A stretch of DNA of 23,570 nucleotides. It comes from a virus. Its lineage: Duplodnaviria > Heunggongvirae > Uroviricota > Caudoviricetes. This document shows positions 8,649-8,927 of the stretch, piece after piece. How positions within the stretch are numbered: the first letter of the stretch is position 1; every line of letters starts with the position of its first letter. The stretch is from IMG/VR virus record IMGVR_UViG_2563366944_000005; one strand, 5' to 3'. Both the position numbers and the translations under genes were made by a program. The notes under the pieces are model-generated. The model saw only the letters and a program-made list of their open reading frames with translations, was not told the DNA's origin and ran no database searches.

Positions 8649-8927
8649 GATTGTGGTGCTTTTTGTGGGAGTCATCCACTTACGCACTTTGTTTTGCCAT
8701 GCCAGCAGTTAGCTTCTGCTGTAAAACTATTCATGCAGCAAACCTGCACTTCACCACAATGGTTAGCATACTTTTCCTGATTAAGATTTTGCCAAATATG
8801 CTAGCCATTGTTTCATGTATTGGACCTCCTTACTTTTTATTAAAGAGATCCAATATTCACTACTCTGTCCGTATCTCTACTCAGGCATCAGCCTTCTTCG
8901 TTATCGTATACAGACGAGCGATGAATT

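Follow-up and report, generated by a model that had tools for sequence, protein, structure and literature searches.

What lies between the cold-shock gene cspB and the end of its transcript in the Qin cryptic prophage of Escherichia coli K-12? The DNA analysed here (23,570 nt, IMG/VR record IMGVR_UViG_2563366944_000005; ‘the window’ is the whole of this stretch) is that prophage, and its positions 8560-8960, which served as our query, are 100% identical to K-12 genomes. On the minus strand, cspB (8928-9143, from the list of open reading frames (ORFs) and the K-12 annotation; Pfam CSD, E = 1e-31) closes with a TAA at 8930-8928, and the only strong minus-strand terminator lies some 280 nt further on (8646-8619), as the original prediction, made from the letters of the DNA, had stated. 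That prediction had also singled out, within the intervening stretch, the Shine-Dalgarno (SD) sequence AAGGAGG, an 8-nt spacer, an ATG and an 11-codon ORF encoding MKQWLAYLAKS, all of which are indeed present at 8831-8781 (minus); it had proposed that they mark a leader peptide, a micro-protein, or else a small RNA (sRNA) or regulatory element of the 3' untranslated region (3'UTR). The K-12 RefSeq annotation places no feature between ynfU and cspB. The stretch is the Qin copy of a conserved structured non-coding RNA of ~190-280 nt, sitting directly 3' of a CspB-type gene with a cspA-type 5'UTR; it is read on the csp-sense strand and does not code for protein. Very probably this RNA is functional and the 11-codon ORF is incidental to it.

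A conserved structured RNA read on the csp-sense strand

Over the 316 nt from the cspB stop codon to the terminator, the predicted fold reaches -105.2 kcal/mol, as against -72.8 +/- 4.5 kcal/mol for shuffled sequences (z = -7.2), with none of 100 shuffles folding as well; the fold, unlike the SD-ATG motif considered below, exceeds chance. Compensatory differences were already evident in the first alignment with phage relatives. In 21 lineages aligned by MAFFT, 89.9% of the cells form pairs (28-46% in slid controls), and both-side changes are seen at 23 of 56 pairs, where shuffling gives 14.6 +/- 1.9, none of 500 shuffles reaches 23, and slid controls give 5-13. When 38 distinct sequences are aligned to a model of the element, 95.3% of cells are paired, with both-side changes at 13 of 35 pairs (6.8 +/- 1.3 shuffled; 0-3 slid). 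Compensatory changes of this kind support every helix of the element as described below.

Stops interrupt five of the six frames of the core in every one of 20 lineages, and the sixth (antisense) frame is open in only three. Protein-coding explanations on either strand, including a 97-aa plus-strand ORF at 8645-8938 and ORFs annotated in some phage records, were rejected on such stops and on 1-nt indels between lineages. The paired columns hold 85 G·U cells versus 15 A·C cells, an excess that identifies the csp-sense strand as the RNA. Compensatory change, the lack of a conserved ORF and this G·U strand asymmetry are together the features of a conserved structured non-coding RNA.

Read from the csp side (all coordinates here on the minus strand), the element opens with hairpin H1 (8862-8919), which starts 8 nt after the cspB stop codon, and at about that distance elsewhere, where it is present; it was found in all lineages examined but the type seen in phage PHB10 (alignment A2). 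Its core stem pairs 8915-8908 with 8874-8867, both-side changes being found at seven of the eight pairs of the outer stem, and carries a short apical stem together with a conserved purine-rich internal loop, ACGAAGA (8901-8895) opposite UGAGUAGA (8883-8876). Across lineages this loop reads ACGAWGA opposite UGAGUAGA, has tandem G·A potential, and presumably recalls the loop-E/sarcin-ricin and kink-turn (C/D-box-like CGAUGA...CUGA) motifs. There follows hairpin H2 (8818-8855), of 15 bp, at -18.3 kcal/mol (z = -6.6), the 3' arm of which holds the AAGGAGG. In the lineages of phage Cyrano and of L103 a hairpin occupies the same position with much the same strength (-20.3 and -20.2 kcal/mol; z = -7.1 and -6.4, respectively), but its stem sequences are unrelated and lack the SD. 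Beyond it lies the long hairpin H3 (8756-8811; -17.8 kcal/mol, z = -4.4), with the consensus ACAAYRG-GYYAGC...GCURRCC-RUUGU and a variable apical part; among its 13 modelled pairs, both-side changes number 5 (alignment A2) to 6 (alignment A4), with 90-93% of cells paired.

The most conserved part of the element is a four-way-junction core at 8653-8757, as modelled by covariance. It is closed by P1, GUGRYG/CRYCAC (8757-8752 with 8658-8653), which is 100% paired with two covarying pairs, and contains P2 (8749-8733; one covarying pair), P3 (8721-8703; two) and P4 (8679-8665; two). P3 carries a 7-nt loop, AAGCUAA, for which AAGCGAG and AAACUAA are the only variants seen, and the linker J3/4, which includes AAAGUGCGUAAG at 8690-8679, is near-invariant and unpaired. 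H2 and H3 are lacking from lineage L170, and H1 and H2 from the PHB10 type; as judged from these sequences, the common core is the predicted junction, usually together with H3. In lineage L167 (Raoultella lignicola, ~4423-4560) tandem GAAAGCCT units replace the 5' half of this region (H3, the P1 5' strand and P2) and the P3-P4 half is kept, scoring 114.9 bits.

A second pairing scheme is also evident. RNAalifold favours two local helices over the long-range P1, namely B1, which joins the P1 5' strand to AGUC in J2/3, and B2, which joins GUGC of J3/4 to the P1 3' strand. The two schemes are mutually exclusive, and yet each is 100% paired across the 21 lineages; both-side changes fall in P1 only, B1 and B2 taking those same substitutions as wobbles. 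Predicted energies of the two lie less than 2 kcal/mol apart in 11 of 20 lineages, with neither consistently favoured. A switch would be consistent with such dual pairing, which could nevertheless stem from no more than two evolutionary events.

The 11-codon open reading frame

Could the mini-ORF nonetheless be what this stretch is for, encoding a micro-protein or leader peptide, or coupling some regulation to translation? Its setting looks persuasive at first sight: AAGGAGG (8831-8825, minus) is perfect, the 8-nt spacer leads to an ATG (8816-8814) that sits in the single-stranded H2-H3 linker, a TAA closes the frame at 8783-8781 (the ORF as a whole being 8781-8816), and 101 of the 102 Qin-type copies keep the frame intact. 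The SD-ATG unit is not above chance, however. AAGGAGG occurs once in the window, where shuffles lead one to expect 2.3, and AGGAGG-N4-10-ATG occurs twice against an expected 0.88, with 21 of 100 shuffles holding as many. Moreover, the SD forms part of the 3' arm of H2, and is thus buried in a stable 15-bp stem, and codons 3-11 fall inside H3.

Comparison with relatives, which had been suggested as a check of the SD-ATG unit, also goes against the peptide. All 139 non-Qin copies of the element lack the SD and start codon (the position of the ATG reads ATCGACACAAC or similar in non-Qin lineages), and in Escherichia sp. E1V33 (L170; 7461-7716) a clean 82-nt deletion has removed H2 and H3, and with them SD and mini-ORF, while H1, junction and terminator are kept. 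Among the 102 Qin-type copies, all six substitutions within the ORF are nonsynonymous, one of them a stop at codon 4, so that these near-identical prophages present six variants (MKQWLAYLAKS, MKQWPAYLAKS, MKQWPAYLAIT, forms ending in VIT and AKP, and the one with the stop). The commonest SD variant, AAGGAGA, is a weaker SD, but it turns a G·U pair of H2 into A-U and strengthens the stem.

Neither of the two peptide proposals survives this. The ORF lies 3' of cspB, ahead of a terminator and a convergent gene, and hence not 5' of any gene that a leader could regulate; and the micro-protein has to contend with an SD held in a stable hairpin, an SD-ATG unit confined to Qin, and substitutions that are nonsynonymous without exception. 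Type I toxins are hydrophobic, membrane-active peptides, usually of 18 or more residues, and MKQWLAYLAKS, with 11 residues, two lysines and no hydrophobic stretch, does not resemble them. We consider a translated and functional ORF highly improbable. The SD-like sequence appears rather to be retained as half of a stem, and we judge the ORF to be incidental, a by-product of the H2 and H3 stems in one lineage. This carries a warning for small-ORF hunting, in that a consensus SD and ATG can arise as one arm of a structural hairpin.

Distribution, neighbours and known RNA families

Of 5426 complete E. coli genomes, 1640 contain the query, and identity among Qin-type copies is 95% or more. Among phage records, BLAST returned full-length copies of 95-100% identity in the active lambdoid phages 2H10, Tritos, HannyBb, PhiR42_1 and PhiR63_1, along with partial matches of 75-82% identity in two unrelated phages, Cyrano (108 kb) and PHB10 (57 kb), both of which sit just 3' of a csp gene. 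In Cyrano (OV696614.1; L002 2534-2845) this is a CspB-like gene with a cspA-type 5'UTR, unannotated in the record, between hicB and a DNA polymerase III alpha gene.

More distant relatives came from pattern scans. Two patterns taken from the two most conserved segments were run against viral contigs, giving >120 and then 50 contigs; scanning one genome per species gave 29 true loci, in Escherichia/Shigella and 11 other genera (Kosakonia, Enterobacter, Phytobacter, Kluyvera, Superficieibacter, Pseudescherichia, Raoultella, Leclercia, Atlantibacter and two unclassified metagenome-assembled genomes), and including one contig that resembles E. coli but had been binned as Veillonella. With P1 and P2 as anchors, a further scan yielded 31 loci, 30 of which belong to the set found by the loop patterns, and a metagenome scan anchored on J3/4 and P4 yielded 67, of which 65 are full-length matches to the covariance model (at least 129 bits). 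The loops are near-invariant in these scans too; since differently anchored scans recover the same loops, their near-invariance is not merely an artefact of the search.

In a further 121 records of plasmids, most of which come from Klebsiella, E. coli and Enterobacter, the element follows a cold-shock gene; some small ‘plasmids’ with the core only are Qin-like prophage fragments and Cyrano-like phage-plasmids. Carriers overall comprise lambdoid phages, SSU5-like phage-plasmids, large plasmids and umuDC-linked islands, in at least 13 enterobacterial genera. A CspB-like ORF in the same orientation ends 60-150 nt before H3 and the core (128-221 nt before the P3-loop anchor) in 32 of 36 unique variants; of the remaining four, two are truncated, one is rearranged and one is a random match. 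The Rfam cspA thermoregulator lies on the linked csp gene in all six lineages tested. In Enterobacteriaceae, the element and its csp gene move together, on lambdoid phages, SSU5-like phage-plasmids and other plasmids as well as in chromosomal islands.

Covariance model R1 (H3 plus core), built from 20 lineages, has one match in the window (8650-8813, minus; 143.6 bits, E = 1e-31), and none after cspI in the window or after cspG in K-12. The cspI gene (6017-6402, minus) provides the window's second match to the cspA thermoregulator, at 112.8 bits, and is not followed by the 3' element. For cspB, the thermoregulator model (RF01766) covers 5'UTR and coding sequence (8912-9304, 158.8 bits). This 428-nt model describes the entire cspA mRNA, from 5'UTR through coding sequence to a short 3' end, and has a gathering score of 78 bits; its match stops at 8912, 16 nt past the cspB stop, and leaves 8650-8911 outside, such that within 8250-9000 only the truncated end of the coding sequence scores (23.3 bits).

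Where present, the terminator (8619-8646, minus; found both by a terminator scan and in alignment A2) takes the form AAACCCGC-UCAG-GCGGGUUU followed by UUUUAUUAU, and is predicted from its sequence to close the cspB transcript. Its stem (8646-8627) has 8 bp, five of them G-C, and a 4-nt loop, and is followed by UUUUUUAUUAU; it thus shows the G+C-rich stem-loop of an intrinsic terminator, with GGGTTT and then TTTATTATCT, and is the sole strong terminator-like site on the minus strand 3' of cspB. The Qin, Cyrano, L103 and L159 lineages all have it (alignment A2). In the Qin lineage only, GAAUAGUUUU follows the P2 hairpin (8733-8749, minus) and was flagged as terminator-like, other lineages having no such U-run.

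In the MG1655 RefSeq record the order is Q-like ydfT, cspF (opposite strand), cspB, a gap, ynfU (opposite strand) and essQ. The convergent neighbour ynfU (8394-8564, plus; PF23499, E = 3.5e-31; NF038384) encodes a zinc-ribbon protein of the YnfU family, 56 aa long and basic at its N-terminus. Synteny places it next to the element in L155, L160, L139, L003 and L159, and not beside it in the Cyrano, L103, L092, L172 and L182 lineages; in PHB10 its stop codon is only ~20 nt from the end of the element. Because ynfU is convergent and close, transcripts from the two sides could overlap the RNA; we treat the gene as context only.

A recurrent cassette consists of a divergent cspF-like gene, a cspB-like gene and the element, often with a convergent ynfU-family gene and a 75-aa ORF, and frequently lies beside umuDC. 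This 75-aa ORF (L003 3457-3684, plus; also L092, L172, L182, L155 and L139) is conserved as MKKVI.FFN..P.KVITVL.G.TS..EEYPNGE...LQIMSAGFPSLTGDH..VYVASDRELTSQEILDA, with no match to a Pfam or NCBIfam family. STnc100 (RF02076) scores above its gathering threshold a few hundred nt 3' of the element, on the same strand, in L159 (2941-3070, plus), L003 (4288-4489, plus) and L092 (1093-1286, minus), and has no match in the window. Elsewhere in the window, a near-palindromic terminator-like hairpin, AAAACCCGCTCATCAGCGGGTTTT, at 9949-9972 (plus), between ynfS/cspF and the Q-like ydfT, could stop transcription both ways, late transcription from Q included. Rfam, at gathering level, also identifies the sok antitoxin RNA of the hokD/relBE region (16150-16321, minus) and the DicF sRNA (21773-21824, plus), both expected for Qin.

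None of the 4227 models of Rfam 15 reaches its gathering score in 8600-8930 on either strand, and even at E up to 10 the best scores in 8250-9000 are 16-23 bits, far below thresholds; homologous elements in six other lineages likewise have no Rfam match. Trp_leader (RF00513; 21.7 bits against a gathering score of 41) and isrK (RF01394; 18.3 against 50) are chance-level hits to the terminator-proximal part, their likeness being one of general shape only, stem-loops and then a terminator. A tRNA or tmRNA was rejected, with ARAGORN finding no gene in 8500-9000 and the P3 loop AAGCUAA lacking the U33 of an anticodon loop; so too was a repeat of the MITE or REP (repetitive extragenic palindromic) kind, as genomes have about one copy each, invariably following cspB. 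The prophage sRNA svsR is located at the cI gene and is unrelated. The literature that we could search, to which access was partial, holds no report of a cspB 3'UTR RNA. The family appears to be undescribed, being outside Rfam 15, the K-12 annotation and the searchable literature.

What the RNA might do

Synthesising these findings, we propose that the stretch is the Qin copy of a conserved structured RNA that lies 3' of a CspB-type gene and has a role in cis, an explanation that, taken as a whole, we put at roughly 55%. The suggestion of an sRNA or 3'UTR regulatory element was closest to the mark: the 3'UTR in its entirety forms a conserved structured RNA that shows covariation, which is stronger than what had been proposed, and this RNA may be regulatory. 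On the minus strand, 8650-8930 holds no predicted sigma-70-like promoter, and H1 starts right after the stop codon; with no room for a promoter of its own, the RNA would be made as the 3' portion of the cold-inducible csp message. At 37 °C cspB is barely expressed. In functional lambdoid phages, the element would in addition be part of the Q-dependent late transcript. We speculate that it folds into a compact domain lying between stop codon and mRNA 3' end, and that this domain may govern how readily the message is reached by RNase E and by exonucleases working 3' to 5' (PNPase, RNase II and RNase R); such controlled access might then set the lifetime of the cold-shock message during and after cold shock. 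Refolding between P1 and B1/B2, whether dependent on temperature or on some factor, may form part of this mechanism. That control of csp mRNA stability or processing would be the main function is the most tentative portion of the proposal, argued from analogy, and to our minds falls somewhat short of even odds.

The 3' untranslated tail of cspA itself has two stem-loops and is roughly 55 nt long. The main RNase E cut in cspA mRNA falls within this tail, immediately 5' of the terminator (Hankins et al. 2007, via PMC2948425), and loss of the 3' stem-loop is thought to speed exonucleolytic decay (PMC2948425); it is because of this precedent that we favour a guess at stability in cis. Like the cspA tail, the element is the 3' untranslated part of a CspA-family message, between stop and intrinsic terminator, where decay starts. 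Unlike it, the element is five times longer, is unrelated in sequence, contains a four-way junction that includes invariant nucleotides, and occurs only with CspB-type genes carried by mobile DNA.

Other comparisons are looser. The icaR 3'UTR of Staphylococcus aureus acts by pairing with its own SD; for a similar 3'UTR-5'UTR pairing in the element, RNAduplex positions are inconsistent, and no complementary k-mer is common to the lineages. The 3'UTR of Salmonella hilD, of 310 nt, controls its own mRNA, and its published abstract does not present it as a covarying multi-helix fold, in which it differs from the element (PMC4027200). With both of these the element (~280 nt here) has in common an unusual length for a bacterial 3'UTR, and as the known ones are regulatory, so may it be. 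Then there are 3'UTR-derived sRNAs bound by Hfq or ProQ, such as CpxQ, SdhX and RaiZ; ProQ also protects the 3' end of cspE mRNA, csp mRNAs being clients of 3'-end-binding chaperones. The element resembles these in its structured 3' end, its conserved unpaired nucleotides and, in four lineages, its terminator, but its conservation extends over the entire junction instead of a single seed, and the terminator is missing from many lineages. It is not a member, in sequence or structure, of the cspA 3'UTR, of the long regulatory 3'UTRs, or of the chaperone-bound sRNAs.

Several points weigh against the cis explanation, beginning with the fact that function is something that we infer in its entirety. 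The near-invariant junction and loop nucleotides exceed what a simple barrier to exonucleases would need, and argue that a ligand-binding, protein-binding or tertiary-fold role fits at least as well. The invariant loops have no conserved complement in the csp 5'UTR or elsewhere in the cassette, such that no specific pairing mechanism in cis can be named. The losses in L170 and the PHB10 type imply that the essential part is H3 plus the junction, or the junction alone, and alignment A2 shows no comparable terminator directly 3' of the element in the PHB10 and Enterobacter types. Saying this, the conservation itself should be read with some care: mean column identity in the core is 79%, making the homologues only moderately close; most of them were found by conserved-loop patterns, which inflates invariance and lowers the number of independent covariation events; and the two covarying pairs of P1 may reflect only two events.

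It is the near-invariance of the junction that leads us to take two other kinds of function seriously, a trans-acting or protein-binding RNA being rather unlikely in our estimation and a sensor of readthrough improbable. The former holds that the 3' end of the csp mRNA, or a processed fragment of it, accumulates in the cold and acts through AAGCUAA and AAAGUGCGUAAG, either by Hfq- or ProQ-dependent pairing with target mRNAs, or as a ribonucleoprotein (RNP) scaffold that binds or sequesters CspB, ProQ, Hfq or YnfU. Unpaired segments that hardly change while stems vary would suit such an RNA, as would the high degree of structure, which fits ligands of the ProQ type, and the recurrence of a ynfU-family gene as convergent neighbour; in the four lineages with the canonical terminator, the RNA is predicted to end, as Hfq- and ProQ-bound RNAs do, with a U-tail. 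Yet the many lineages without terminator and U-tail, and the five in which ynfU is not adjacent, fit poorly, no promoter is predicted within the element, the searchable literature has no report of such an RNA, and the conservation of nearly all junction nucleotides is unlike a typical seed-based sRNA.

A sensor, akin to an RNA thermometer or riboswitch, would exchange the P1-closed junction for B1/B2 and thereby control termination or readthrough into what lies downstream, the lysis cassette in lambdoid phages or the 75-aa ORF in Enterobacter-type cassettes. The two exclusive pairings, fully maintained in 21 lineages and predicted to be near-isoenergetic in about half, are what such a device would show, the conservation of the junction is aptamer-like, and in L092, L172 and L182 a same-strand ORF follows ~60-200 nt past the element with no clear terminator between. 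Set against this, B1/B2 is backed by wobble-compatible changes only, none of them both-sided and perhaps stemming from two evolutionary events, and no known riboswitch or thermometer family in Rfam matches the element. What lies downstream varies, from terminator and convergent ynfU to an opposite-strand DNA polymerase gene or a small ORF, and the linkage is to the csp gene upstream and not to any gene downstream.

That the element has no function at all, being a hitch-hiker or decayed gene remnant spread recently with its cassette, with hairpins that are fortuitous or are palindromes of the DNA, we regard as very improbable. Qin-type copies are close to identical, the cassette is clearly mobile, and H2 and H3 can be lost, all of which speaks for such an account. 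It struggles, however, with helices kept by compensatory changes where flanks and hairpin apices have diverged beyond alignment, with a near-invariant junction, and with an H2 that keeps its position and strength while its sequence becomes unrelated; the G·U bias marks one strand as RNA, which is unexpected of DNA palindromes, and no frame is open across lineages.

A bolder version of the structured-RNA proposal is possible, though the odds are against it: the element may be the first representative of an as yet undescribed class of bacterial RNAs with a complex fold, an aptamer-like four-way junction with accessory hairpins that mobile elements have attached to cold-shock genes, and may act more specifically than by blocking nucleases, be it as a bistable sensor of temperature or ligand (P1 versus B1/B2) or as the core of a small RNP with CspB, ProQ or YnfU.

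Finally, E. coli K-12 is the most thoroughly mined of bacterial genomes for non-coding RNA, and yet this stretch of ~280 nt has stood unannotated; the system can be tested directly in K-12 with standard genetics. If functional, the element would represent a new family of structured RNAs, carried by about 30% of complete E. coli genomes as well as by phages and plasmids of many enterobacteria, and would add a 3' layer to the control of cold-shock genes, now explained almost entirely by the cspA-type 5'UTR thermosensor. Should the reading as a new class hold, phages and plasmids would possess a post-transcriptional control of their own over a cold-shock function of the host.

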